This document shows, one piece after another, positions 22,819 to 37,852 of a stretch of 64,000 bases of DNA. Below the pieces are notes generated by a model that saw only the letters and a list, made by a program, of their open reading frames with translations, did not search any database and was not told the origin of the DNA. Position 1 is the stretch's first letter. Each line of letters starts with the position of its first letter. The DNA comes from an uncultured Planctomycetota bacterium. Lineage in GTDB: Bacteria > Planctomycetota > Planctomycetia > Isosphaerales > Isosphaeraceae. The DNA lies in assembly GCA_963737655.1 (NCBI GenBank), contig CAVTTN010000002.1, positions 4,384,001-4,448,000 on the forward strand, written 5' to 3'. The translations under genes and the position numbers were made by a program.

Positions 22819-23310
22819 ATGAGATTCGCGATCCCGGGGATTCCCCTGCTGGTCACGATCGAGAGGCGGCCGAGGGAGGCCGCGAAGGGCCGAATTCGCG
22901 ACCTGATGGCCTGGATCGCCTTCGTCGCCGTGATCCTGGCCGCCGGGATGTTCATCGCGAGCCTGCCCGACCGCGTGAAGGGATTCCGGGCGATGGCCAA
23001 CCGGAATCGCGACGCCGCCTTTCAGGCCGAGTTCGCCCTCTCGACCCAGGAATCGACGCGGAAGAACTTCGAGAGCCGGGCCCAGTTGCTCGATCGCCGA
23101 GGCGCCGAGATCGCGAAGGAAGGAGACGCCGGGACCGCCGATTCGTTGCGGAGGGAGGCGGCCACCTATCGCGCCATCGCCAGGGCTCAGGCGGACGAGG
23201 CCGGGCGGTCCCGCAAGCGGATCGCCCACTTCCAGACGCTCGCCGACAAGTACGCCAAGGCCGCCGAACGCCCCTATCTGCCCGTCGGCCCCGACCCCTC
23301 CGAACCCTGA
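22819..23310 (+). CDS. Hypothetical single-TM helical protein
   Basis: RIRDLMAWIAFVAVIL N-terminal TM; helical body ending KYAKAAERPYLPVGPDP. Confidence 0.65.
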   Translation: MRFAIPGIPLLVTIERRPREAAKGRIRDLMAWIAFVAVILAAGMFIASLPDRVKGFRAMANRNRDAAFQAEFALSTQESTRKNFESRAQLLDRRGAEIAKEGDAGTADSLRREAATYRAIARAQADEAGRSRKRIAHFQTLADKYAKAAERPYLPVGPDPSEP

Positions 23311-23738
23311 TCGGCGAGCCGGTCGTACGGGACGATGTTCTGCCACTCGTCGGCGTCGGACCGGGCGACGACCGCGACCACCGGCTCCTCGTCGCTGAGG
23401 TTGAAGACCTCGTGGGGGACGCCGGGCTCGATGAACAGGAAGTCGCCGGCCGAGTTCTCCACCACGTTCTTCAGCCCCGGGCCGTACTCGTGCCGGACCC
23501 GGCCCTGGAGGATGTAGAGCATCAGCTCGAAATCGACGTGGATGTGCGCATAGGCGACGCCTCCGGGCGGGATCGTCGCCACGTTCATCGACAGCTTCTT
23601 CGCCCCGACGTTCTTGGCCGAGAGGCCCACCTTGTAGTGGATGCCGTTCCAGTCCCGGCAGTTGCCCGAGGCGCGGATCACCGAGATCCCGTCGCGGCCC
23701 TCGACGTCCCGGGCCAGGTCGATCGGTTCGGACGGCAT
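23274..23738 (-). CDS. Cupin domain protein
   Basis: HIHxxxE..GDFLFIEPGVPH. Confidence 0.85.
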   Translation of the reverse strand: MPSEPIDLARDVEGRDGISVIRASGNCRDWNGIHYKVGLSAKNVGAKKLSMNVATIPPGGVAYAHIHVDFELMLYILQGRVRHEYGPGLKNVVENSAGDFLFIEPGVPHEVFNLSDEEPVVAVVARSDADEWQNIVPYDRLADQGSEGSGPTGR

Positions 23739-23757
23739 GTTCGGCGGCCCCCTCGTC

Positions 23758-24168
23758 TCACTTCATCGCGAGCAGCTCGATGGTACGCTTCACGAACGCG
23801 GAGGCGGCGGCGAGGTTCTCCTCGGGCGGCCTCTTCATCCCCTGGGCCCGTTCGAAGGCGTGGACGTGGGCCGGGTCGAGCAGGCCGCTCTTCACGTAAA
23901 GGTCCTCGCACGCGAGCAGGAGGCAGCGGAGGCCCATCTCGCGGTAGCCCTTGTTGTAGACCAGGGCGCGGAGGCAGGAGAACATGGCCTCATAGCTGAG
24001 GAAGCTGATGTCCGCGCGGTCCCCCTGGCCGGTGAAGTTGATGTTGGCCGCGGCCTCCAGCCGGTCGGCGGCGGTGGACATCAGGCCGCCCACTCGGGTC
24101 GGCGCGTCCTTGTCCTCGACGAGGTACGGGCTGTCCAGGCACTTCGGGAAGGTGTTGATAATCGCCAT
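23758..24168 (-). CDS. HEPN-domain-like protein
   Basis: A..L..A...SYEAMFSCLRALV..G pattern of HEPN folds; no adjacent nucleotidyltransferase. Confidence 0.6.
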   Translation of the reverse strand: MAIINTFPKCLDSPYLVEDKDAPTRVGGLMSTAADRLEAAANINFTGQGDRADISFLSYEAMFSCLRALVYNKGYREMGLRCLLLACEDLYVKSGLLDPAHVHAFERAQGMKRPPEENLAAASAFVKRTIELLAMK

Positions 24169-24223
24169 CGGCGAGGGCCTCGATTCGATCGGATCGCGGA
24201 GGGAAGGTCCGGGAGGTCGCTCG

Positions 24224-26104
24224 TCAGTCGTCCTGGGGCTTGGCCTCGCTCGACTTCGGCCGGTCCTCGGCCTTCGGCGAGGCCGGCGGGGTGGCCGAGG
24301 CCTTGCCCTTCCCTTTGCCTTGCCCCTTGCCCTGGGCCTTCCCCTTCGGGGCGCCCCCGCCCCCGCCGCCTCCGGGAGGGCCTCCGGCCTTGCCCTTGGG
24401 CGCGGAGCCTCCGGCGGAGGCGCCTCCGCCCTTGGCGGTGAATTCCGCCGCGCCTTTCTTGGCCTGCTCCAGCCGTTCCTCCGGGGTGGTGCGGAACCCG
24501 GGCTCGGCCGAGGTGGCGTGGCGAATGTCCCCCAGGGGGCGGGTCTTCGAGGCGTCGGTCATGGCGCGGAGCAACGGGGTCGGGTAGAGGCCGCACCCCA
24601 CCGCCACGGCCGTGGCCGCGACGACCGAGACGGTCACTCCCAGGGGGGCACGGCCCGTCGTCGTCGAGCGGGCCGGGCGGAGGAACATCGCCTTGAGCAC
24701 CCGGACGTAATAAAACGCCGAGACCACGCTGTTGAACAGGCCCAGCGCCACCAGCCACGTCAGCGTGATCCGCCCCTTCTCGCCCGTGTTCATGGCTTCC
24801 ATGAACATGTAGAGCTTGCCGAAAAATCCGGCCAGGGGGGGCATGCCGATCAGCGAGAGCATCAGCAGGACGATGCACACGGCCAGGAACGGCGAGCGGG
24901 AGCCGAGGCCGTCAAGTTCCGCGATGTCGTCCCGGCCGGTGTCGCGGACGATCCACGCCGCGACGGCCAGGGCCCCGGCCGTCGCGAAGGAGTAGACGAC
25001 CAGGTAGAACAGGACCGGCCCGGTGTCCATCTTCTGGGTGGTCGAGACGCTCGCCGCCAGGACGCCCACGAGCATGTAGCCGGCGTGGGCGATCGAGGAA
25101 TAGGCGAGCATCCTCTTGAAGTTCTTCTGGGCGAGCGCCGCGAAGTTGCCGAACGTCATGGTGGCGGCGGAGATCGCGGCGATCAGGCCGATCCAGCCGG
25201 GGCTGGTGAGCTCGCCGGGCCTCATCGCCCAGGGGGCCAGGCCGCCGACGAGAACCTTGATCATCGCCACGAAGCTGGCGATCTTCGAGCCGGTCGCCAC
25301 CCAGGCCGTGACCGGGGCCGGGGCGCCCTCGTAGGCGTCGGGCGCCCATTGGTGGAACGGGACGGCCGCGATCTTGAACCCGAACCCGACCAGCACGAGC
25401 AACACCGCCACCGCCCCGGCGAGGTTCCCCTGGAGGCCCTTCGGCGCCGACCCGCCGGCGAGCAGGCCCTGGATCGCGTCGATCCGCGTGCTGCCGGTCA
25501 GCCCGTAGATCAGGCTGAGGCCGAAGAGGAACAGGGCCGAGGAGACCGACCCGTAGACGAAGTACTTGAGGCCCCCCTCGGCCGACCGCCGTTTGCCCTT
25601 TTCGAACGCGGCCATCATGTAGAGGCAGAGGGTCATCGTCTCCAGGGTCAGGAACAGCGTGAGCAATTCCTCCGAGGCGACCAGGAGCATCATCCCCACG
25701 CCCGACCAGCAGAGCAGGGCAAAATACTCGCCCCAGTGCTCGGTGAAGTCCCACGCCATCGACTGCGCGACGATCAGCGCGAGCAGGCCGAGGAGCGTGA
25801 GGTCCATCCAGCTCGTCACGCCGTCGCTGGTCAATACGCCGGAGAACAACGAGACGTAGAGGCCGGCGGTGTTGAAGCCGCCCCTGTCGGCCGGGAGCAT
25901 CATCGCGACCTGCAGGCCGGCGATGCCGACGACCCCGAGCAGGGTCAGCCAGCCCAGCCGCCCCCTCCGCTCCGGGCCGGGCTTCTTGCGGAGCAGGGCG
26001 AAGTCGTACATCAGGACGATCAGGCCGAGCGCCGTCAGGGCGATCACCGGGGCGATGAAGAAGAGGTCCCCCTTCAGGGCCTCGATCGGGTCGAAGTCTT
26101 TCAT
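24224..26104 (-). CDS. nuoN: NADH-quinone oxidoreductase subunit N with low-complexity C-terminal tail
   Basis: EGGLKYF, FKIAAVPFHQWAPDAYEGAP, KRMLAYSSIAHAGY. Confidence 0.92.
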   Translation of the reverse strand: MKDFDPIEALKGDLFFIAPVIALTALGLIVLMYDFALLRKKPGPERRGRLGWLTLLGVVGIAGLQVAMMLPADRGGFNTAGLYVSLFSGVLTSDGVTSWMDLTLLGLLALIVAQSMAWDFTEHWGEYFALLCWSGVGMMLLVASEELLTLFLTLETMTLCLYMMAAFEKGKRRSAEGGLKYFVYGSVSSALFLFGLSLIYGLTGSTRIDAIQGLLAGGSAPKGLQGNLAGAVAVLLVLVGFGFKIAAVPFHQWAPDAYEGAPAPVTAWVATGSKIASFVAMIKVLVGGLAPWAMRPGELTSPGWIGLIAAISAATMTFGNFAALAQKNFKRMLAYSSIAHAGYMLVGVLAASVSTTQKMDTGPVLFYLVVYSFATAGALAVAAWIVRDTGRDDIAELDGLGSRSPFLAVCIVLLMLSLIGMPPLAGFFGKLYMFMEAMNTGEKGRITLTWLVALGLFNSVVSAFYYVRVLKAMFLRPARSTTTGRAPLGVTVSVVAATAVAVGCGLYPTPLLRAMTDASKTRPLGDIRHATSAEPGFRTTPEERLEQAKKGAAEFTAKGGGASAGGSAPKGKAGGPPGGGGGGGAPKGKAQGKGQGKGKGKASATPPASPKAEDRPKSSEAKPQDD

Positions 26105-26171
26105 CGGCGGCGCCTGGGTCCTGCGGGTCGGGTCGGGTCGATGCGCGGTTCAGAGCCAGGGAGAGGGGGGA

Positions 26172-26501
26172 TCAGCCGGCCATGCTGTCGAAGCGGTCGA
26201 TGTCGGCGGCCTTCCAGCGGCGGTAGCACAGGAGGATCAGGCCGATCCCCACGGCGACCTCGGCCGCGGCGATCGTGATGACGAAGATGGCCATCATCAC
26301 CCCGGTCAGGGGCCCTTCGCCGGCGGGCGGGGTGCCGTACCGCCAGAAGGCGATGAAGTTGATGTTCGCCGCGTTGAGCATGATTTCGATCGCCATGAGC
26401 ACGGCGATGGCGTTGCGCCGGGCCATCACGCCGAACAGGCCGATGGCGAACGACGCGGCGGCGAAATAGAGGAACCAGCTCAGGGGGATGTCGTCGGTCA
26501 T
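26172..26501 (-). CDS. nuoK: NADH-quinone oxidoreductase subunit K
   Basis: RRNAIAVLMAIEIMLNA, AAAEVAVG; ATGA overlap with nuoJ. Confidence 0.92.
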   Translation of the reverse strand: MTDDIPLSWFLYFAAASFAIGLFGVMARRNAIAVLMAIEIMLNAANINFIAFWRYGTPPAGEGPLTGVMMAIFVITIAAAEVAVGIGLILLCYRRWKAADIDRFDSMAG

Positions 26502-27292
26502 GCCTGGCCCCTGTCGGGGGTCTCGGGGGAGAGCTTCGCGCCGGCCAGGGTCCCGGCGACGGCGTGGCCGTTGGTCGGGTCGGGCGAGGCCGGCCCCTCG
26601 GTGCCCCCTCGGCCGGTCTGCGCGGCGCCGAGGCGGAAGTGCGGGTCCTTTTCGTCCGATTGCGCCAGGGCGATCGCGCCGACTAGGGCCGCCGTGAGCA
26701 ACAGACCTGCGACCTCGAAGGGGATCACAAATCGTCGGAGCATCTCGTCGCCCACGGCCTTGCCCATGTTGGCGATCGCGGCCGATCGGCCGTCGGTCGG
26801 CGGGGCGTCCGGATCGGGCGGGACGAACTTCGGCCTCTGGGCGAGGATCGACCACGCCGGGTTCCCGCCCAGCCCTTGCTCGCGGGCGATCCCGGTGGCC
26901 AGCATCGCCAGGAGGCCGAAGGCGATCACCCCGGCCGGCAGCTTCCTCATCCAGTGCCCGCCGGTCGTCTCGTCCCCCTGGATGTTCCGGGTCAGCATGA
27001 TCCCGAACATCAGGATGATGGCCACCGCCCCGATGTAGACGAGCACCTGCATGGCGGCCATGAACTCGGCTTCGAGCAACACGAACGTGCACGCGACCAG
27101 GAAGAAGAACCCCACGAGGAACAGGGCCGCGTGGACGAGGTTCCTCGCCACGACCGTCCCCACCGCCGTGAGCAGGCCGAGCGAGGCGATCACCAGAAAG
27201 AGGATGCGGATCAAGGGGTCGGACTCCCGGGAGATTCGGTCCGCCGATGTCGCGGAGAGAGAGAGGGGGTCGAGGGTCGTCGGATGGATCAC
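26498..27292 (-). CDS. nuoJ: NADH-quinone oxidoreductase subunit J
   Basis: NLVHAALFL, QVLVYIGAVAIL, PFEVAGLLL; GTGA overlap with nuoH. Confidence 0.9.
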   Translation of the reverse strand: MIHPTTLDPLSLSATSADRISRESDPLIRILFLVIASLGLLTAVGTVVARNLVHAALFLVGFFFLVACTFVLLEAEFMAAMQVLVYIGAVAIILMFGIMLTRNIQGDETTGGHWMRKLPAGVIAFGLLAMLATGIAREQGLGGNPAWSILAQRPKFVPPDPDAPPTDGRSAAIANMGKAVGDEMLRRFVIPFEVAGLLLTAALVGAIALAQSDEKDPHFRLGAAQTGRGGTEGPASPDPTNGHAVAGTLAGAKLSPETPDRGQA

Positions 27293-28593
27293 TTCCTGGC
27301 GAAGGCATAGTCTCGGCGGAGGGGGGCGGCCAGGGTCGGCGCCTCCTCGCGGGTCGCTCGGTTCAGCCAGAGGACGAAGGCGACGGCGAGGATCTCCAGG
27401 GGGCCCGTGTAGATCCAGCCCCAGAGCTTGTCCATCGCGGTCGGCAAGTAGTCCGGCAGGTGGCCGATGGTCACCTCCTGCCAGATCGCCGCGATCACCA
27501 GGTTGAGGATCGCCAGCGGGATCATCGTCTTCCACGCGAACCCCATGAGCTGGTCCACCCGGAGCCTCGGCAGGGTGACGCGGACCCAGAACATGAAGAA
27601 CACGTAGAAGAACACCTTCGTGAAGAAAATTCCCGTGGTGATCGCGTTCACCAGGACGAACGACGGCACGGTGTCGGTCAGGATCGAGCGGAAGTCGAAG
27701 AACGGCAGCGAGCCGCCGCCGAGGAACAGGCTGGTCCCCAGGCAGCTCACGCCGAAGACGCTGAGGTACTCGGCCAGGAAGAACAGGCCGAACCTCATCC
27801 CGGAATACTCGGTGTGATAGCCCGCGATGATCTCCGACTCGGCCTCGGGCAGGTCGAACGGCGTCCGGTTCACCTCGGCGATGTTGGCGATCGTCAGGAG
27901 GATGAACGACACCAGGCCCGGGGGCGAGAAGAGGAACCAGCCGTCGTCGAGCTGGCGGTTGAGGATCGCCACCATGCTCAGGCTGCCGGTCCAGAGGATG
28001 ATGGGGACCGTCGCCAGGACCTGAGGCACTTCATACGAGACGAGCTGGGCCACGGCCCTCATGGCCCCGAGCAAGGAGTACTTGTTGCGGCTCGACCATC
28101 CCGCGAGGAAGATGCCGAGGCTCGAGATGCTCGAGACGGCGATCAGGTAGAGCAGGCCCGAGGGCAAATCGACCGGGACCAGCCCCGTCACGCGGTTGCC
28201 GACCTTGCCGCCGAAGCCGAACGGGATCACGGCGAGGACCAGGAACGCCGAGACGAGCAAGATGACCGGCGCCAGCAGGTGGACGACGGCATCGGCGGCC
28301 TTGGGGACGATGTTTTCCTTGGTGATCAGCTTCAGGGCGTCGGCGATCGGCTGGAGGAGGCCGAGAGGGCCCACGCGGTTCGGGCCGATCCGGTCCTGGA
28401 ACCTCGCGGCGACCTTGCGCTCGGCCCAGACCATGTAGGCGACGATCCCGGGGAAGGCGCCGAAGAACGCCAGGCCGAGCCACGCCAGCCAGATCACGTG
28501 CTGGCGGGTCAGGGGGCCGAGCATCGGCTCGTCGATCCACGCGGTCGAGGAGGCGGCCTCCTGGGCCAGGATCATCGGCAGGGCGAAATTCAC
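27289..28593 (-). CDS. nuoH: NADH-quinone oxidoreductase subunit H
   Basis: ERKVAARFQDRIGPNRVG, QPIADALKL, NRTPFDLPEAESE, PRLRVDQ. Confidence 0.95.
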   Translation of the reverse strand: MNFALPMILAQEAASSTAWIDEPMLGPLTRQHVIWLAWLGLAFFGAFPGIVAYMVWAERKVAARFQDRIGPNRVGPLGLLQPIADALKLITKENIVPKAADAVVHLLAPVILLVSAFLVLAVIPFGFGGKVGNRVTGLVPVDLPSGLLYLIAVSSISSLGIFLAGWSSRNKYSLLGAMRAVAQLVSYEVPQVLATVPIILWTGSLSMVAILNRQLDDGWFLFSPPGLVSFILLTIANIAEVNRTPFDLPEAESEIIAGYHTEYSGMRFGLFFLAEYLSVFGVSCLGTSLFLGGGSLPFFDFRSILTDTVPSFVLVNAITTGIFFTKVFFYVFFMFWVRVTLPRLRVDQLMGFAWKTMIPLAILNLVIAAIWQEVTIGHLPDYLPTAMDKLWGWIYTGPLEILAVAFVLWLNRATREEAPTLAAPLRRDYAFARK

Positions 28594-28636
28594 CGTGGAG
28601 GCTCCCCATCGCGGACCGATTCCCGGATCAATCCGA

Positions 28637-28996
28637 TCAGACCCACCGCAAGACGCCCTTGGCCCAGGCGTAGGCCAGCCCGATGGCCAGCATCGCGAGG
28701 AAGATGACCATCTCGACCAGGGCGAACGTCCCCAGGGCCCCGTAGCTGACCGCCCAGGGGTAGAGGAACACCGTCTCGATGTCGAACACCAGGAACATCA
28801 ACGCATAAATGTAATACTGGATGCGGAACCGGACCCAGGTCTCCCCGGTGGTCAGGAGGCCGCACTCATACGTGTCCCCCTTCGACCGCGATGTCTTCCT
28901 CGGCGCCACGATCGCCACGACGACCAGGGGGGCGACGGCGAAGCCGATCGCGCCGAGGAGGAGCAGGCCGATGAAGAGGTAGGACGAGAGGATCAT
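28637..28996 (-). CDS. nuoA: NADH-quinone oxidoreductase subunit A
   Basis: YECG, FLVFDIETVFLYPWA, YAWAKGVL. Confidence 0.95.
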   Translation of the reverse strand: MILSSYLFIGLLLLGAIGFAVAPLVVVAIVAPRKTSRSKGDTYECGLLTTGETWVRFRIQYYIYALMFLVFDIETVFLYPWAVSYGALGTFALVEMVIFLAMLAIGLAYAWAKGVLRWV

Positions 28997-29019
28997 GGGG
29001 TGTCCCGAGGGAATCGAAT

Positions 29020-29304
29020 CTAGAGGGGCCGGACCTCGGTGTTCTCGTCCAGGGCGACGACGGTGATCTCGCCGTCGTCCTTGAGGAGGCGGAGGGTGGG
29101 CTGGCTGACGTACATCGCCTTGCCGCCCATCTCCATCCCGCCGACGGGCCGGAGGCCCTCGGCCTCGACCGTGCCGGTCACCTCGGTGGTCCAGCGGCGA
29201 TGCCCCACGCGGACGTGCTGGACCACGCGGACGGCCGTCCCGGGGGCGTATTTCGGAGGCGGAGGGGTCGGAATCATGAGGTCTCTCGGCTCAGGAGCGG
29301 ACAT
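29020..29304 (-). CDS. Small hypothetical beta-rich protein between nuoI and nuoA
   Basis: Co-oriented, coding-like codon usage. Confidence 0.65.
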   Translation of the reverse strand: MSAPEPRDLMIPTPPPPKYAPGTAVRVVQHVRVGHRRWTTEVTGTVEAEGLRPVGGMEMGGKAMYVSQPTLRLLKDDGEITVVALDENTEVRPL

Positions 29305-29361
29305 CCTAACGGTGGGGGCAGGCGGGGGCAAGGGGCGCGACCGGCGACTTTCGCCGGATCG

Positions 29362-30060
29362 TCACGCCTTCGCCTTCGAGGGGGCGGCGGCGGGCTTCGC
29401 GGCGGTCGCCCCGAGCGCCTTCTGGAGCCTCTGGTCCTTCTTCTTCTGGACCTTTCCGCGCTCGGTGACCTCGTCGGAGGACGCCCACGCCTCGGGGTGG
29501 GTCTTCGCGTAATACTCGGTGGAGACCAGCAAGTCCTGGAGGCTGAAGATGTGCGTCTGGTGCCTCTCGAAGTTCGAGAGCTCGAAGTTCTGGTCCATTT
29601 TGATGGCGTCGAACGGGCAATACTCGGAGCAGAGCCCGCAATTCATGCAGACGTCCATGTCGATGAAGAAGTCTTCGGGCAACGGCACGGGCGCGCCGTT
29701 GGGTCCCTGGGCGTGGGTCATCCAGATGCATTGCGGCGGGCAGACCTTCGCGCAGATGTTGCACGAGGTGCAGCGGACGTTGCCGTCGGCGTCGTCGTAG
29801 ACGAGCATCGGCAGCATGCGGAACCGCTCGTAGACCGGCAGGCGCTCGTCGGGGTACTCGACGGTGAAGAGGCCCTCGGTGGTGGCGTCCTGCCGGATCG
29901 TGGGCTGCGACCCCCGGGTCTTGGGGCCGAACCAGAGGTCGAAGAACTGGTGGCCGCCGCCTCGACGGCGGAGCGTGGCCCCGTCGCCGACGAAGAACGT
30001 GCGGACGAACCGACGGAGGGTCACCCAGTGGCCGATGAACAGGCCCTTGCCGAAGCTCAT
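29362..30060 (-). CDS. nuoI: NADH-quinone oxidoreductase subunit I
   Basis: TVEYPDE..RFR; two CxxCxxCxxxCP motifs. Confidence 0.9.
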   Translation of the reverse strand: MSFGKGLFIGHWVTLRRFVRTFFVGDGATLRRRGGGHQFFDLWFGPKTRGSQPTIRQDATTEGLFTVEYPDERLPVYERFRMLPMLVYDDADGNVRCTSCNICAKVCPPQCIWMTHAQGPNGAPVPLPEDFFIDMDVCMNCGLCSEYCPFDAIKMDQNFELSNFERHQTHIFSLQDLLVSTEYYAKTHPEAWASSDEVTERGKVQKKKDQRLQKALGATAAKPAAAPSKAKA

Positions 30061-30707
30061 GAGGTCCTTCCTTTGTCGCCGACAGGTCCGGCGCCGACGG
30101 CCTCGGGGGCGTCGCCCGCGCAGTGGATGAGGATTCCGAGGATCTTGCCGATACGTTCGATGTGGTACTCGTGCTCATCCAGGGCCAGGGTCGCCCCATC
30201 GAGCCGGAGGAACTGCCAGAGCGATCCGGTGGTGACGGCCCCGTAGATCAGGTCGGCAGGCGACCCGTCCCTCTCGTTGAAGACCCGGGCGCCGACCATC
30301 GCGGCGGCGCACTGGCCCAGGCCGAGCTGGATGTTATCCCGTTTCGCCTCGATGACCACCAGGACCGGGGACACCAGGAACATCTGCTCGGGGGACCTCG
30401 CCAGGAGGAAGTCGCAGACGCCGGAGAGGCCCTGGGAGGCGTCGGCCGCCAGCTCGATCCCGGAGAACAGCGCGACGCGGCGGCCGAGGCGCTCGCGGAC
30501 CTCGACCAGGATCGGCGCCACGAGGAATTCCGATCGCGCCTTTTCCGTGTTATTGGCCAGCGCGAGCGGGTAGTTGCGGTTCAGGGTCCCCGTGAGGTAG
30601 TCGCCCTCCTCGGATTCCGGGACGTCGGCGAAGAGGTCCGGAGTCGGGACGACCGACAGGCCGAACCGGCGGGTGGCTTCCTTCAGGGTGAAATCGCCGT
30701 AAGACAT
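30057..30707 (-). CDS. Hypothetical PD-(D/E)xK restriction-endonuclease-fold-like protein (paralog 2)
   Basis: EKARSE..GVCDFLL..IEAK..GLGQC..GAVTTG..WQFL; stop overlaps the nuoI ATG. Confidence 0.7.
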   Translation of the reverse strand: MSYGDFTLKEATRRFGLSVVPTPDLFADVPESEEGDYLTGTLNRNYPLALANNTEKARSEFLVAPILVEVRERLGRRVALFSGIELAADASQGLSGVCDFLLARSPEQMFLVSPVLVVIEAKRDNIQLGLGQCAAAMVGARVFNERDGSPADLIYGAVTTGSLWQFLRLDGATLALDEHEYHIERIGKILGILIHCAGDAPEAVGAGPVGDKGRTS

Positions 30708-30712
30708 GCCGA

Positions 30713-31576
30713 TCAACGCCCCCCCGGGTCGTCCGGGGCCTTGGCCTCGGACTTCTTCTTGGAGCGGCTCGACTTGGATTTCGACGACGGGGTCGCCGAA
30801 CCCTTCGAGGCCGCCGACGAGGGCGGTTCGGCGAGGCTGGGGTCGATCTTGGCGAGGTCGAACGGCTCGCCGAGCAGGGCGTTGAAGGCGTCCTTCTGGC
30901 CCTTGCTGAGGATCGCGCCGATCCGGCCGGAGGCGGTGTCGCGGATCATCGCGGCCTGGCGGCGGAGGGCCGGGCCCTGGGCGGCGTCGGCCTGGCCCAT
31001 CAGCGTCGCCTGCCGGGCCAGGGCGACGACCTGCCTCTGGCCGAGCCTCCATTCATTCACGATCTGGGAGATCCGCTCGTACTGATCGGGCTTGACCTTG
31101 ATCCGGGCGGAGACCTCGGGCCGGGAGACCGACAGCGGGCCTTCGATCCGGTAGACGATCTGCTGGAGCCGCTCGGTCTGCTTGGGCTTGAGGACCTCGC
31201 CCACGGCCTTCTCGTTCTCCTGGCGGAACCTGGACCACGCCGCGAACAGGGCCTCGGGGTCGTTCGCCCCGCCCAGGACCGACGCCCGGAACAGGTCGGC
31301 CCCTTTCATGGTCATTTCCTTGTAGATATCGAACACCTCGGTCTTCTGCTCGGCGGTCAGCTTCAATTCCTCCTGGACGGCCGGCGCCTGGATCACCAGC
31401 AAGACGTTCGCCCCCTCGGGCCCGAGGACGTTGCCGGTCCGGGACGACCGCGGGGAGGAAGACTTCGCCGCGGTATCCTCCCCCTTCGCGGAATCCTTCT
31501 CCTTCGCGGTTTGCGCCAGGCAGGGAACGGCCCAGGCCAGGAGGACCGCCAGCGCCGCCGGTCGGATCGTCGCCAT
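30713..31576 (-). CDS. Secreted helical protein with LTxxQ-like (Spy/CpxP-like) repeats
   Basis: Signal peptide; VQEELKLTAEQK, VLKPKQ.ERL.QI, ILSKGQK..LLGEPF. Confidence 0.7.
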   Translation of the reverse strand: MATIRPAALAVLLAWAVPCLAQTAKEKDSAKGEDTAAKSSSPRSSRTGNVLGPEGANVLLVIQAPAVQEELKLTAEQKTEVFDIYKEMTMKGADLFRASVLGGANDPEALFAAWSRFRQENEKAVGEVLKPKQTERLQQIVYRIEGPLSVSRPEVSARIKVKPDQYERISQIVNEWRLGQRQVVALARQATLMGQADAAQGPALRRQAAMIRDTASGRIGAILSKGQKDAFNALLGEPFDLAKIDPSLAEPPSSAASKGSATPSSKSKSSRSKKKSEAKAPDDPGGR

Positions 31577-31623
31577 GAGTCGTTCCTCCCCAGGGGGCCG
31601 TGCTCTGCCGGGTCGATCCGCCT

Positions 31624-32232
31624 TCATGCCGCCCTCCCCCCGACGCAATGCAGGAGGATGGCGAGGATCTTGCCCGGGACGTCGATCGCGTATTCTTCAG
31701 GATCGAGGACGAGCTCGGATCGGTCGAGTCGCAGGAAACGCCAGGCCGTCCCGGTCGTCACGGCGCCGAAGACCGTCGATGGACCTTCGCCTTCGGTTTC
31801 ATTGAACGACTGGACGGCGACCATCTCGGCGGCGCACTGGCCCAGTCCTGGCTTGACGTTGTCGTTCTTCGCCTCGACGACGGCGAGGACCGGGGCCGTG
31901 ACGAGGACCTTCAATCGGGACTTCGTCAGCAGATAAGCGCAGACCCCGTTCAGTCCTCGGGCTTCGTCGACGTGGAATTCGACTCCCGAGAAGAATCCGA
32001 CCGCGCCTCCCATCCTCCGGCGGGCCTCCAGGAGCATCGGGGTGACGATCAATTCCGATCGGGCCTTTTCCGTCCCGATCCCGACGGCCAGGGGGACGCA
32101 CTCCTCCAGGAGGCTGTGAAGGGTCGGCCCGATATCAACCGGATCAAATCGTCCGAAAATGTCGATTTCATCGACGATCTTCAGGCCGAACTCCTTGCGG
32201 ACCCGATCGAGGGTGAACTGGTGATAGGCCAT
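31624..32232 (-). CDS. Hypothetical PD-(D/E)xK restriction-endonuclease-fold-like protein (paralog 1)
   Basis: EKARSE..GVCAYLL..VEAK..GLGQCAAEM..GAVTTG..WRFL; co-linear with 30057-30707. Confidence 0.7.
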   Translation of the reverse strand: MAYHQFTLDRVRKEFGLKIVDEIDIFGRFDPVDIGPTLHSLLEECVPLAVGIGTEKARSELIVTPMLLEARRRMGGAVGFFSGVEFHVDEARGLNGVCAYLLTKSRLKVLVTAPVLAVVEAKNDNVKPGLGQCAAEMVAVQSFNETEGEGPSTVFGAVTTGTAWRFLRLDRSELVLDPEEYAIDVPGKILAILLHCVGGRAA

Positions 32233-32247
32233 CGCCCGGAAGTCCTC

Positions 32248-34989
32248 TTAACGATCCACCTCGCCCAGGACGATATCCAGGCTGCCGAGGATGCCCACCA
32301 CGTCGGCGATCGTGTGGCCCAGGCACATCTGTTCGAGGGCCGTCAGGTTGATGAAACTCGGGCTGCGGACGTGGTAGCGGTACGCCGTGCCCGAGCCGTC
32401 GGCCAGGACGTAGAAGCCCAGCTCGCCCTTGGGCGCCTCGCTCCTCGAATAGGCTTCCCCGGCCGGGACCTTGATCTGGTACGACTTCTTCCCCGGCAGG
32501 ATCGGCCCCTCGGGCAGGTCGCGCACGGCCTGCTTGAGGATCTTCACGCTCTCGCGCATCTCCAGGAGGCGGACGACGTACCGGTCGTAGATGTCGCCGT
32601 GGGTCCCGGTGACGACCTTGAAGTCGAAGCGGTCGTAGATCGAGTACGGGGCGGCCCGGCGGATGTCGTAATCGACGCCCGAGCCTCGCAGGACCGGCCC
32701 GGCCGTCGAGAACGCCGTCGCCTGCTCGGCCGTGAGGACGCCGATCCCCTTGCACCGATCCAGGACGATCTCGTTGCCCGAGAGGTAGCGGTCGAGCTCG
32801 TCGATCCGCCGGTCCAGGCGGTCGAAGACGATCGCCTTGCACCGCTCGGCCCAGCCCTTGGGCAGGTCGAACGCCACCCCGCCGAACCGGAAATAGTTGC
32901 ACATCATCCGGCTGCCGGCCGCCCACTCGAACAGGTCGAGGATCAGCTCGCGCTCCTCGATCGCGTACAGGGCGGGGGTGAAGAACGCGCCCAGGTCGTT
33001 CAGGAGGAACCCGATCGACCACATGTGGCTGGCGATCCTCGTCAATTCGGCCATGATCACGCGAATGTATTCGGCCCGTTCGGGCACCTTCGCGTCGTCG
33101 CCCATCAGTTGCTCGACGGCCAGCGCGTAGCCGAAGTTATTGGCCATGCTCGTCAGGTAGTCGAGCCGGTCGGTGAACGGGAAGTTCATCAGGAACGTGT
33201 TGCGTTCGCCGATCTTCTCGTGATTGCGGTGCATGTAGCCCATCACGGGCTTGAGCCCGACGATCGTCTCGCCGTCCACGCGCAAATTCATGCGGAAGAC
33301 GCCGTGGGTCGAGGGGTGTTGCGGCCCCATGCTGACGATGAACTGGTCGGTGTCGAGCTCGGAGACCTCGGCCCCGCTGGGCAGGAGGTACTTGCCCTTG
33401 GTGTCGTCGCCGGGGTCGAGCTTGTTCCAGCCGTCGTAGCCCTTGGGCACCTTCATGTTGGTGCCGTGGGGGCTGAACTCCTCGGCCCGGAAGTGCTGGC
33501 CGTCCTCGACCCGGCTGTCGAAGACTTTTGTGGGGCCTTCGTAGTACGGTTCGAGGTAGTCCTTGCGAAGGGGGTAGTAGGCGAACCCCTCCCACATCAA
33601 AATTCGCTTGAGCTCGGGGTGCCCGGCGAACCGGACGCCCATCATGTCGTAGACCTCGCGCTCCTGGAAGTCGGCCCCTCGCCACACCGAGACGACCGAC
33701 GGCACCTCGCCCTCCCCTTCGGCCTCGGCGCACCTCACGCGGAGCTCGATCAGCTTGCCGGGGTTGGTGGTGCTGTCGACCTGATAATTGACCTCGATGC
33801 AATCCTCGTAGTGGACGCTCTGGAGGCTCGCCAGGTAGTCATACTTGATCGGGTTGCGGTCGCGGAGGTAGAGGCCGACCGCGACGAGCTTCGCCGGCTC
33901 GATCAGCAATCCGGCCATGACGACCTGGGCGGTCCCGGCGCCGAATTCGGCGTTGATCCGCTCCTCCAACTGCTTCAATTCGAGGTCGCCGAGCCAGACG
34001 AGGCTGGGCCGGGCCTCGGCCGTCTTGATCTTCTTGCCGGCCTTGGCGGCGGGCTTGCCGGTGTCCTTGACCGGGGTCGGGACGGCCGCGGCGTCGGCGT
34101 TCGGGCTGTTCGCCTCGGCCTTCGCGGGGTCGGCCTCGGCCACGTTCTTGGCCTTGGCCCGCAACTGGTCGAGCTTGCTCATCGGCTTCGGCGCCGAGTC
34201 GGCCGGCTCGGGCGTCGGGATCTCGACGGCCCCCGGGGCCGGAGGGGGCTGCGGCGCCGGGATCCTCGCGGGCTTCTCCAGGGTCGCCTCGCGGGCCTCG
34301 ACCAGGCCCATCGCCGTCCTCTCGGCCGTCATCTCCAGGGTCCGGAGGTCGATCAGGTCGGGCCCGAGCACCGGGATCGGCACGTCGCGCTCGACCTGGC
34401 CGTTATACCACGGGGACTGGGTGATCTTCTCGCCGTCGATCTTCTTCTGGAGCATCATCAGGCCGTTCAGGAGCGCCTGGGGCGTGGGCGGGCAGCCGGG
34501 GACGTACACATCGACCGGGAGATACTTGTCGATCCCCGAGACGACGTTGTACCCCTCCTTGAACGGGCCTCCGCCCGAGGCGCAGGCGCCCATGCTGATC
34601 ACGTACTTCGGCTCGGGCATCTGGTCGTACAGCCGGGCGATCATCGGCATCATCGTCTTGGTGACGGTGCCCGAGACGATCATCACGTCCGCCTGGCGAG
34701 GGGAGCCGCGGAAGACCTCGGCGCCGAACCGGGCGATGTCGAACCGGCTCGACGCGGTGCAGATCATCTCGATGGCGCAGCAGGCCAGGCCGAAGCCCAG
34801 GGGCCACAGGCTGGAGCGGCGGCCCCAGTTGTACACGAGGTCCACGATCCCGCCGGCGCCGACGAGCTTCTGCCACGTCGTGGTCACGACGTGCTGCTCC
34901 AGCTCCTTCTGGAGGCCGGGGTCGATGACGGTCATCCACTCCGGGCGGGTGGTGGTGAGCTCGGCGCGGGGTTCGAGGGTGGTCGCCAT
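32248..34989 (-). CDS. nuoBCD: Fused NADH-quinone oxidoreductase subunits B-C-D (913 aa)
   Basis: NuoB ([18 protein letters not shown]), NuoC ([17 protein letters not shown]) and NuoD ([24 protein letters not shown]) in one stop-free frame. Confidence 0.92.
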
Positions 34990-35181
34990 GATTCGGATTC
35001 GCTCGGCTCGGCTCGGGATCGTCCGGGGCGGGGCGGACCGGGTTCGGCCTCGTCGTCGATCGCGGACGATCACCGACGGGCGCCCCGGGGCCTTGCGTAT
35101 GGTAAGCATCCGGCATGGGGCTTGCCAGGGGGTAGCGGCCGACCCCTTCCCGACCTTCCCGGCCCGGACCATAATGGCAGG

Positions 35182-35406
35182 ATGGATCACTCCCGGTTCC
35201 AGATCAGCGTGGCCGCGATGCTCGCCCTGGTGGCCTGCCTCGCCCTGAATTTCTGGCTCTTCCGCCTGGGGGTGATCTGGGGACTGCTCGGCCTGAACGT
35301 CACCAAGCACGTCGCCATCGCCTTCGTCTGCCAGGCCATCGGCCTGAACCGCAAGGTCCAGCGGCCACCGACGCCCAAGCCCCGGCCCGAGCCGTCGTCG
35401 AATTGA
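35182..35406 (+). CDS. Small hypothetical membrane protein (74 aa), possibly leaderless
   Basis: [14 protein letters not shown] hydrophobic N-terminus; CATAAT -10-like box ends 6 nt before the ATG. Confidence 0.6.
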
Positions 35407-35440
35407 ATGGGCTCGGGTCGCGGCGATTCCCTTTGCCGGT

Positions 35441-35488
35441 CCCCTCTCCCCCGTCGCGGCGGAGAGGGTTAGGGTGAGGGTGAGGGGG
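35441..35488. repeat. CCCCTCTCCC...GGAGAGGGTTAGGGTGAGGG-type palindromic repeat
   Basis: Hairpin plus AGGGT tail; related copy inside pabB (9725-9750). Confidence 0.65.
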
Positions 35489-35569
35489 CCGCAGCCCAGG
35501 ACGCTCCGGGCAAAGTCCCGGCCCCAAGAGATCGCCCCGTGGTCACCCGATGGCGGTCCCATCTCCCCC

Positions 35570-37852
35570 ATGATCCCCCGGCCGACCCTCCCCCTGCCCT
35601 GCCTCGTCGCGATGGCCGTCGTCGGCCTGGCGCTCGGCGGATCGTGGTTCGGGTACGAGCCGGTTGGCGGAGACCCCGACAAGCTCTATCGGCCGATCAA
35701 GGCGGAGCTCGCCCGGTCGCTGGCCGAGGGCCGATTGCCGTTCTGGAGCGACCGCTTCGGCCTGGGCTGCCCTCTCGTGGCCGAGAGCCACGTGGCCGCG
35801 TTCTACCCGCCGAACTGGCTGGTTTACCGCGTGATGCCCGTCGCCCCGGCGTTCCGGCTGATGCTCTGGCTCCACTCGGTCGCCCTGGCCGGGACGATGT
35901 ACCTTTATGCCCGATCGCTCGGCCTGACGCCCTGGGGGGCGGCCCTGGCGTCGGTGGCGTTCTCGCTCTGCGGGTTCTCGGCGAGCCACTGCGTCCATGA
36001 GCCGTTCTATGGCGTGATGCCATATTTACCTCTGTGCCTGTACCTCGCCGACCGCTTCGCCGGGACCGGCCGGATCGCCTTCGCGGCGGGATTGGCGCTG
36101 GCGTGGGGCGTGCAGATCACCCTGGGACATTTTCAGATCCCGATGTGGACCGGAGGGGCTCGCGCTGGTCCTCGGCGGCTGGCGGGCGATCTGCGAGGGC
36201 CGACCGTGGCGGATCGTCGGCCTCGGGATCGCTCTCGTCGGCGGGATCGGCCTGGCGGCGGTCCAGATCGTGCCGACGTATGAACTTGTGAAGGTGGCCG
36301 GGTTCGGCCGCCCGCTGGCCCAGTTGATGAATTATCGGTCCCCTCCCGAGCACCTTTCCGGCTGGGCGGTGCCAGAATTGTTCCTGGCCCGGGATGGTCA
36401 CTCGAACGACGCCTACTGGTCGCGCCTGGCCACGACCCCGGGCGAGTCCTCGGCCTACGTCGGGACGGTCCCCCTGGTCCTCTCCTGGGTGGGGATCGTC
36501 GCGGCCCCTCGCGACCGCCGCTTCACCCCCTGGCGGCTGATCGTCCCGGCCGGTCTCGCCCTGGCGAGCATGGCGAGCTGGTGGCCCGACGGATACTGGA
36601 TCGTCTTGCAGGTCCCCGGTTTCGGGCTGTTTCGCGCCCCGGGACGATACACGTTGCTGACCAGCCTGGGACTGAGCTTGCTCGCGGGTCGGGGGCTGGA
36701 CCGGACGATCTCGGCCCGACGCTTCGGGATCGGCCTGGGCCTGGCGATCCTGGCGGGAGCGGCGAGCTTCGGATGGTCGATGCTCCTCGCCAGCCGAACC
36801 GATTATCGGGCGAGCTTCGGCGCGGACACTGTGACACTCCGAATCGCTTCGGCCGCGGGGGCCTGGGCGGTCGGCCTCGGGGCGGTCGTGGCCTGGCGGA
36901 TGCGGAGGCTCCCCGACTGGGCCCCGGTCGCCGTGGCGGCCCTGGAACTGTCGATCCTCTTTCATCTCGGCTCATCTCGATGGCAAAAATCGGTCGATCC
37001 GACGACGGACAGCCCGATCCTCGCCCGGCTCGCGACCGAGCCCGACGTGGGCCTCGTGGCGGGCCCGGTGGGGAACGTGCCGGTCCGATTGGGCCTGGCC
37101 ACGGCGTTCCCCGACTTCGGGATCACGCCACCTCCGCCGAATTACCTCCTCGAATCCGCGCGGACGCCTCCCGGGCAGAACGACCCGGCGTCCCTCCGCT
37201 GGCAGCGCCGGTTCGGCGTGACCCACGGCGTCTGGCACCTGGGAGACGAAACCCGAAATGCCGAAATCTTGATCGAAGCGCCCGACCCGGCCCTCGACCG
37301 GCTGCTGGACGAACGCGCCGGACCTCCCTCGCGGTGGAAGCTGGCGAGGATGGCCGGGGCGTTCCCCCGGGCCCGGGTCGCGACCCGGAGCGTCGAGGTG
37401 GAGGACTGGGGCGCGATGTACGTCCGTCTCACGTCGCGCGACGACCCGGAGGAAGTCGTTTATGAGACGGCCGACCGGCCGCGCGAGGCCGGCGGCCCGA
37501 GGGCGAAATCCGCCCGGCTGATCGCCTTCGACGGCCGATCGGCCGAGGTCGAGCACGACGGCGAGTGCGACCTGGTCGTCCGCCGGACGTATTACCCGGG
37601 GTGGATGTTCCGGATCGACGGCGGCCCGAGGCGCCCGTCCTCAAGGCCGACGGCGGGTTGCAGGCCGTCCGGTTGGCGGGGTCTGGCGTTCATAACGTCA
37701 CATTTGTGTATCGGCCGACGGGAATGGGTCGGGCGATGGGGATTTCGGGGATTTGTTTTGTGGTTATTTTGATGTTTTTCGGTTTGACAATTTTTGGTTT
37801 CAGATCTCGGGTCGGCGGGGGCGTGATCGGCGGGCCGCCGAGAGGGTCGTGA
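35570..37852 (+). CDS. YfhO-like GT-C membrane glycosyltransferase; apparent frameshifts near 36158 and 37628
   Basis: GRLPFW..G.P..AE..FYPPNW, AYVG, FRAPGR, YYPGW..IDG; pieces 35570-, 36270- and 37565- are contiguous. Confidence 0.75.

Follow-up and report, generated by a model that had tools for sequence, protein, structure and literature searches.

How could a complex I operon work that encodes neither the antiporter-like subunits NuoL and NuoM nor the NADH module NuoEFG? The question is posed by a run of nuo genes in a 64,000-nt stretch of DNA (the window; coordinates without a prefix are positions in it) from an uncultured Planctomycetota bacterium of the family Isosphaeraceae. The source genome, G000, comprises 7.6 Mb in 3 contigs and is 88% complete by markers; C2 is its contig 2, and L-numbers denote loci. 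A first-pass annotation of the window had proposed that the missing subunits are either encoded elsewhere or dispensable, the operon then being a second quinone-reducing module with a single antiporter-like subunit. It looked to genome-wide gene counts, synteny in relatives, and the NuoD phylogeny for an answer and noted that an orphan nuoL-nuoM locus evolving together with these genes would reduce the case to a simple split operon. We find that the operon, which supplies nine core subunits out of eleven, very probably makes up, together with orphan nuoL and nuoM genes elsewhere on the chromosome, a split second complex I of 11 subunits without an NADH module, not a one-pump enzyme, and that this complex is probably fed by ferredoxin or flavodoxin, reduces quinone, and pumps protons.

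A count of nuo genes across G000 found A, B, C, D, H, I, L, M, and N in duplicate, J and K likewise by the operon map, and the canonical E, F, and G once each, which amounts to one 14-subunit and one 11-subunit set. The canonical nuoA-N operon lies at C2:3.09-3.11 Mb and the window operon at C2:4.41 Mb. A tblastn search of the whole window with NuoL and NuoM matched only nuoN (24224..26104, minus strand), the sole antiporter-like gene of the operon, whose product scores 371.6 bits against the TIGR01770 cut-off of 332.6 and stays below the NuoM and NuoL profile cut-offs. The second nuoL (791 aa; C2:2052621-2054996, plus strand) and the second nuoM (588 aa; C2:2055062-2056828, plus strand) form an orphan pair (C2:2052621-2056828) on the same chromosome, 2.35 Mb from the window operon, and are 39% and 38% identical to canonical L and M, respectively. 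Beyond the canonical set, all eleven of the subunits A, B, C, D, H, I, J, K, L, M, and N are encoded, nine in the window and two in the orphan pair.

We profiled both loci across 61 genomes of the family, namely, G000 and 60 genomes at least 90% complete. Window-type NuoD and orphan NuoM each occur in 57 of the 61, and the identical four genomes (G081, G083, G084, and G108, from three genera) lack both. Family-level searches found one complex I NuoD and one NuoH in each of these four, the canonical complex being kept, and no orphan L-M pair in any of them, which ties the orphan pair to the operon and not to the canonical complex. The absences look like secondary losses. G108 has neither locus, while G109, from the same genus, carries the two; what is left in G084 is a diverged nuoN (36% identical) behind a small SH3-like open reading frame (ORF), and G083 keeps that ORF and a nuclease-like gene; G081 additionally holds a weak hydrogenase-like locus. 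As a control, an unrelated NuoG-like gene present in 24/61 genomes shows no joint presence and absence. Orphan pair and joint pattern, consistent in 61/61 genomes, leave the one-pump reading unsupported. Of the two earlier proposals, the first is supported for L and M. The second keeps its quinone-reducing module without nuoEFG of its own and finds no support for its single antiporter-like subunit. The co-occurring nuoL-nuoM locus that had been named as the deciding observation does exist; "simple split operon" nevertheless slightly undersells the case, because the two halves differ in ancestry and the orphan NuoL carries a long helix of the 2M type, as described below.

Two other loci of G000 were considered as sources of missing subunits and rejected. 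The genome has three NuoF-like genes: the canonical one, one with a molybdopterin formate-dehydrogenase-like partner, and one with a NuoG-like/cyclic nucleotide monophosphate (cNMP) partner, the latter two being assigned to other enzymes. At this third locus (C2:1293636-1297459; L019) a NuoEF fusion is followed by a NuoG-N-terminal-like Fe-S protein that has cNMP-binding domains and no molybdopterin domain; the locus is found in 24/61 genomes, including 3/4 of those without the complex, and was dismissed as an orphan N-module (NADH module). No dedicated second nuoEFG for the window operon was found in G000, where the formate-dehydrogenase-like locus was not profiled across the family. The second rejected candidate, for L and M, lies at C2:5352774-5359066 (L018), where DabA (PF10070) and two antiporter-like genes make up an inorganic carbon pump of the DAB type; its dabA looks either frameshifted in the 5' part or late-starting. 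The orphan L-M pair itself has no DabA neighbor and so does not have the identity of a DAB pump.

Within the window, the order reported earlier (nuoBCD, nuclease-like, secreted, nuclease-like, nuoI, ORF, nuoA, nuoH, nuoJ, nuoK, nuoN, HEPN, and cupin, all in one minus-strand run) is borne out by ORFs and by Pfam and NCBIfam matches. Also confirmed were the absence of nuoL and nuoM, the close succession of nuoK and nuoN (67 nt from stop to start), and both boundaries, a divergent gene at 35182 and a convergent gene ending at 23310. The nuoBCD triple fusion, or Q-module (32248..34989), encodes 913 aa and matches PF01058, PF00329, and PF00346 as well as NCBIfam models; our NuoBCD query began at 34908, 27 codons inside the start at 34989. 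It is followed by nuoI (29362..30060; Pfam and NCBIfam), whose product carries two [4Fe-4S] motifs and ends in a conserved basic tail, nuoA (28637..28996; PF00507), nuoH (27289..28593; PF00146, passing NF004741), nuoJ (26498..about 27230, its start codon uncertain; PF00499), and nuoK (26172..26501; PF00420). The C terminus of the window NuoN is a long low-complexity Gly/Lys/Ala/Pro tail (24224-24600), and the C termini of its relatives are extended too, at about 540-680 aa.

Synteny in relatives agrees with this layout. Among 44 family loci, a few of them from the same or near-identical genomes, the order BCD-I-ORF-A-H-J-K-N-HEPN is conserved, and none of the 37/37 loci holding both nuoK and nuoN has L or M beside them, which argues that the arrangement is neither chance nor an assembly event. 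The block after nuoI is inverted at L174. In other families, the genes orthologous to orphan L and M are part of H-J-K-L-M-N runs (10 loci, 9 of them with H and N within the stretch examined); the second operon of other Planctomycetia families consists of the blocks I-A-(B)-C-D and H-J-K-L-M-N, which adjoin each other in G026, G031, and G036. Two Acidobacteriota metagenome-assembled genomes (G041 and G042) have their complex in three pieces: BCD-I-HEPN-A-H, a stand-alone J-K-N unit with K directly before N, and L-M. Both hold an extra long-helix nuoL, which in G041 is part of an L-M pair followed not by nuoN but by what we take to be an atpI-like gene. A cut between K-N and L-M is therefore not unique to planctomycetes.

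The key residues of both loci are intact. The quinone-site His/His/Tyr of the window NuoD align with those of T. thermophilus Nqo4 (2FUG chain 4), and no NiFe CxxC ligands were found in the alignment of the D part, which sets the complex apart from group 4 membrane-bound NiFe hydrogenases (Ech/Hyc/Hyf). Conserved Glu/Lys positions of the window NuoN align with NdhB/Nad2, and charged axis residues of the orphan NuoM with solved subunits; we take the quinone-site and axis residues to act as these names imply. Canonical NuoI lacks the basic tail, which window-type NuoI has in common with its Anaerolineae and Acidobacteriota relatives; the median net charge of the last 45 residues is +5, +4, and +2 in these three groups, respectively, versus -1 to -5 in canonical NuoI. 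Such a tail would suit an acidic ferredoxin, for which FpoI of a methanogen may be a precedent. Electrons would then pass from reduced ferredoxin or flavodoxin through NuoI and cluster N2 to quinone, with protons presumably pumped by N, M, and L; the reverse direction of electron flow is possible.

The trees place the two loci apart. Single-gene trees held 41-45 of 82-138 sequences (frameshifted or short matches were dropped by length) and concatenate trees 37-40 units, with three long branches removed in the A-H and J-K-N run; the A-H-J-K-N tree is a quick tree. Approximately unbiased (AU) tests used 27-29 rows under LG+G4, and all trees are unrooted and sample four lineages. By SH-like approximate likelihood ratio test (SH-aLRT), the window NuoD groups with Anaerolineae and Acidobacteriota NuoD (100) and the window NuoI with NuoI of the same groups (99); the AU test rejects a position of this NuoD beside the planctomycete second complex (p-AU 9e-10). 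L and M of the orphan pair, in contrast, are sisters of planctomycete second-complex L and M (SH-aLRT 100 and 99), and a union of the orphan L with the 2M L of Anaerolineae is likewise rejected (p-AU 7e-5); the corresponding NuoM test is weak, as it forced the two Anaerolineae M types together with the orphan M. The A-H-J-K-N concatenate puts four N-module-less groups on one side and canonical complexes on the other (SH-aLRT 99) and marginally rejects the window set with the planctomycete second complex (p-AU 0.039), and the J-K-N concatenate unites planctomycetes and Acidobacteriota (100/99) to the exclusion of the window set. Among 400 further Planctomycetota genomes, none gave a window-type NuoD at E<=1e-135. 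On these trees, the window operon and the orphan L-M pair probably differ in ancestry and the complex is probably chimeric.

The simplest reading of these positions would be that the operon was taken up at the base of the family and the native L-M retained. The family ancestor would have acquired a BCD-I-(HEPN)-A-H-J-K-N set from an Anaerolineae/Acidobacteriota-type lineage; most of the native planctomycete second complex would then have been lost and its L-M pair kept under its own promoter. Among the four lineages of these unrooted trees, the triple BCD fusion and the HEPN-like gene point to an Acidobacteriota-type BCD-I-HEPN-A-H lineage as the possible donor more than to Anaerolineae (B + CD). 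A strongly conserved promoter-like element, with two hexamers spaced by about 19 nt and flanks that are conserved too, precedes orphan nuoL in 18/21 family upstream regions, by a pattern chosen after seeing the data; in G000 it lies at C2:2052520-2052550 (L016), about 100 nt upstream of the gene. It may be usable as a promoter consensus for the family. The search for an upstream motif common to both loci gave none that was convincing, the orphan-L pattern occurring in 9/43 B and 1/16 canonical A upstream regions, and a sigma-70 consensus scan of 23000-35500 found no promoter.

Several points weigh against one enzyme built from both loci. The proposed assembly is drawn from joint presence and absence; the four losses represent at most three independent events, since kin are not independent, and two of the four loss genomes are drafts. 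Across 10 shared genomes, residual rates of orphan L and M covary negatively with those of window N and H (-0.36 to -0.70). When G021, whose L and M evolve fast, was left out, orphan L covaried with window N and H (0.33, 0.42) and negatively with canonical M and N (-0.40, -0.58), and orphan M stayed near zero (0.07, -0.22). In the trees, the sister relation of the window A-H and J-K-N to Anaerolineae is weakly supported (87/71 and 85/67), and the narrow sampling of four lineages, the lack of roots, and the LG+G4 model of the AU tests count here as well. Finally, no ferredoxin source tracks the complex. POR_N over its cut-off is found in one gene in G000 and in 45/61 family genomes and is missing from several complex-bearing genomes, and 2-oxoacid:ferredoxin oxidoreductase was rejected as a tracking donor on these mismatched presence profiles.

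Two genomes stand out within the profile. On G021 contig C127 (L135), the orphan NuoL sits on a very long branch and is 45% identical to that of G000, and the window-type operon evolves normally. G074 carries the whole operon twice, on C18 and C41 (L328, L329), with one copy frameshifted; this genome has 7% contamination, and the duplication is possibly a binning artefact.

Two small genes of the conserved layout are not nuo genes. A HEPN-fold (UPF0332-like) protein, recognized by fold comparison and alignment, is encoded on the minus strand behind nuoN (23758..24168). Of the 61 family genomes, 56 encode it; the exceptions are the four complex-less genomes and one fragmented genome. Its best fold matches are HEPN proteins, at a template modelling (TM) score of about 0.6 and E of 0.04-0.3. 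We found no R-x4-6-H RNase motif in it and no conserved His in 23 aligned sequences, and its neighbors are nuo genes; with neither this motif nor an MNT partner, it does not qualify as a HEPN RNase toxin. In metagenome loci of the Acidobacteriota-type relative, all close relatives, the gene stands directly before nuoA in 10/10 cases, with nuoI upstream in all 6 loci long enough to show it. The protein is thus a reasonable candidate for an accessory or assembly factor dedicated to this complex. The other gene, a small SH3/Tudor-like barrel ORF between nuoI and nuoA (29020..29277 from its likely start, minus strand, 86 codons including the stop), was assigned by its predicted fold; the model has a predicted local distance difference test (pLDDT) score of 92 and matches generic SH3/Sm-like folds with Z up to 6.6. 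It is kept in 4/4 genomes without the complex, and in other families no nuo genes lie beside it in 8/8 loci. The product belongs to a Planctomycetota protein family; the ORF is a resident gene and probably does not encode a subunit. An NdhS-like ferredoxin-docking role was rejected for it, given generic matches of Z<=6.6, the absence of NdhS among the matches listed, and its retention in all four complex-less genomes.

In the orphan NuoL, helix HL is longer by about 25 residues, inserted in the same column as in NuoL of Anaerolineae 2M complexes; this corresponds to the insertion of about 26 residues that marks 2M complex I. The spacing between two C-terminal anchors is 74-75 residues in 18/21 orphan L, 77-78 in 11/13 Anaerolineae 2M L, and 49-50 in 15/16 canonical L of the family. 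The second nuoM of a 2M complex is lacking: each of the 57 matching genomes among the 61 searched has one orphan nuoM, and the PF00361 inventory of G000 agrees. Could the long HL all the same span an L-M-M-N arm, with the orphan NuoM used twice or the canonical NuoM borrowed, so that more protons are pumped per electron pair, as proposed for 2M complexes? The anchor spacing, closer to that of 2M complexes than to the canonical one, speaks for this, as does the tree position of the orphan M, in a clade shared with the two NuoM types of Anaerolineae 2M complexes (SH-aLRT 99). According to the summary in section 10 of PMC9040806, Chadwick 2018 proposed that the extension spans a fourth pump. However, the extension is also found with a single nuoM in 10/11 planctomycete second complexes and in 4/9 canonical 14-subunit Anaerolineae operons (L253-L260, L280), and the same section lists it for Manganitrophaceae complexes of canonical gene content. 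The extension may be a relic; with a single nuoM, this is the more likely reading, and a fourth pump is possible though unlikely.

A related proposal joins several of these observations: an imported Q-module and proximal arm dock native L-M in a hybrid, ferredoxin-linked complex I, the single nuoM fills two positions (L-M-M-N) via the long HL, and the catalytically dead HEPN protein serves as assembly factor. We consider this combination, taken whole, rather unlikely. If true, it would mean a four-pump enzyme invisible to gene counting, and the conclusion would extend to many one-nuoM operons with a long HL.

Subunits might also be exchanged between the two complexes, as cyanobacteria swap NdhD/NdhF subunits, a subject on which PMC8235220 touches. 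The window Q-module and N would then use canonical L/M or dock canonical NuoEFG, and orphan L-M would be an alternative distal module of the canonical complex. Both complexes share one membrane, and the best solved match of the orphan NuoL is cyanobacterial NdhF (444 bits, versus 330 for T. thermophilus). The four operon-less genomes, however, keep the canonical complex and have lost the orphan L-M, the window NuoD is only 38% identical to the canonical one, and the basic NuoI tail is absent from canonical NuoI, which makes such exchange very doubtful. Most improbable is that BCD-I-A-H-J-K-N alone serves as a quinone reductase with NuoN as its sole antiporter-like subunit and the orphan L-M serves otherwise: the fixed K-N adjacency in 37/37 family loci, the stand-alone J-K-N in two Acidobacteriota genomes, the differing ancestry of orphan L-M and Q-module, and a rate covariation that with all genomes included does not tie the halves would fit it, but orphan L-M is kept or lost with the operon in 61/61 genomes, the orthologous proteins of other planctomycetes are subunits of complex I, and an extra long-helix nuoL is present in both Acidobacteriota J-K-N genomes, in G041 within an L-M pair that no nuoN follows.

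The remaining genes of the run are passengers. The first nuclease-like gene (31624..32232) and the second (30057..30707), 47% identical to it, flank a gene for a signal-peptide protein (30713..31576), all on the minus strand and without Pfam match; a cupin gene (23274..23738, minus strand; PF07883) ends the run. Nuclease-like genes recur in 5/44 other family loci, and the signal-peptide and cupin genes in 1/44 each. The label "nuclease-like" is our assumption from what we take to be a PD-(D/E)xK-type motif. This family, without a Pfam entry, has five copies in G000 (the two in the window and C2:4260646, 2936869, and 2531152) and inserts repeatedly between nuoD and nuoI in relatives. At the boundaries lie the convergent gene (22819..23310) and a divergent plus-strand gene (35182..35406) for a 74-aa membrane protein, a conserved neighbor outside the complex whose homologue in G081 adjoins the SH3-like gene at a site without nuo genes. 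Beyond it, a YfhO-like membrane protein is read as two overlapping ORFs (35474-36283 and 36270-37772) and is possibly frameshifted. One record titled Candidatus Kuenenia (L166) has an Isosphaeraceae-type operon with NuoD 85% identical; its label may be wrong.

Complexes of 11 subunits without a designated donor are described as widespread, planctomycetes being among their holders, by Moparthi and Hagerhall 2011 (PMC3144371). The present complex resembles them in its subunits A, B, C, D, H, I, J, K, L, M, and N, in lacking dedicated E/F/G, and in having no NiFe ligands, and it differs in its two loci 2.35 Mb apart, its cut between K-N and L-M, its fused BCD, and its halves of different ancestry. 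A detached nuoBCDI is published for Chloroflexi 2M complexes (PMC7117926). With those of Anaerolineae the complex shares a nuoBCD-I block, a long HL, and a canonical 14-subunit complex alongside, and its NuoD is about 70% identical to theirs and joins them in one clade; theirs, however, have B + CD (50/54 loci) and A-H-J-K-L-M-M-N in one operon, whereas here BCD is one chain, L-M is detached, nuoM is single, and NuoL lies outside the Anaerolineae clade. The second complex of other Planctomycetia has the sisters of orphan L/M and likewise a long HL with a single nuoM, but its Q-module and, less firmly, its A-H-J-K-N are not sisters of those in the window. Acidobacteriota G041/G042 share the BCD fusion, the HEPN-like gene, K directly before N, and a separate long-HL nuoL; their complex is in three pieces, and their L groups with the host canonical L, not with the planctomycete orphan. 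We found no description of the Isosphaeraceae layout by title or listing; Chadwick 2018 and its supplements lay outside this coverage and may already list planctomycete long-HL NuoL. The parts of PMC4453560 and PMC8235220 available do not cover the case.

The complex thus belongs to a known kind, the split N-module-less 11-subunit complex I, and what is new is its chimerism, the long HL with one nuoM, and the HEPN-like companion. Throughout the family, nature has here divided a complex I between N and M; its halves are of different lineages yet disappear jointly, which indicates that the M-N interface tolerates exchange. Both loci are present in cultured members (records titled Singulisphaera, Paludisphaera, Aquisphaera, and Tautonia), so two questions become testable in one organism: how N-module-less complexes are fed in aerobes equipped with a canonical complex I as well, and which role the long HL plays with one nuoM.

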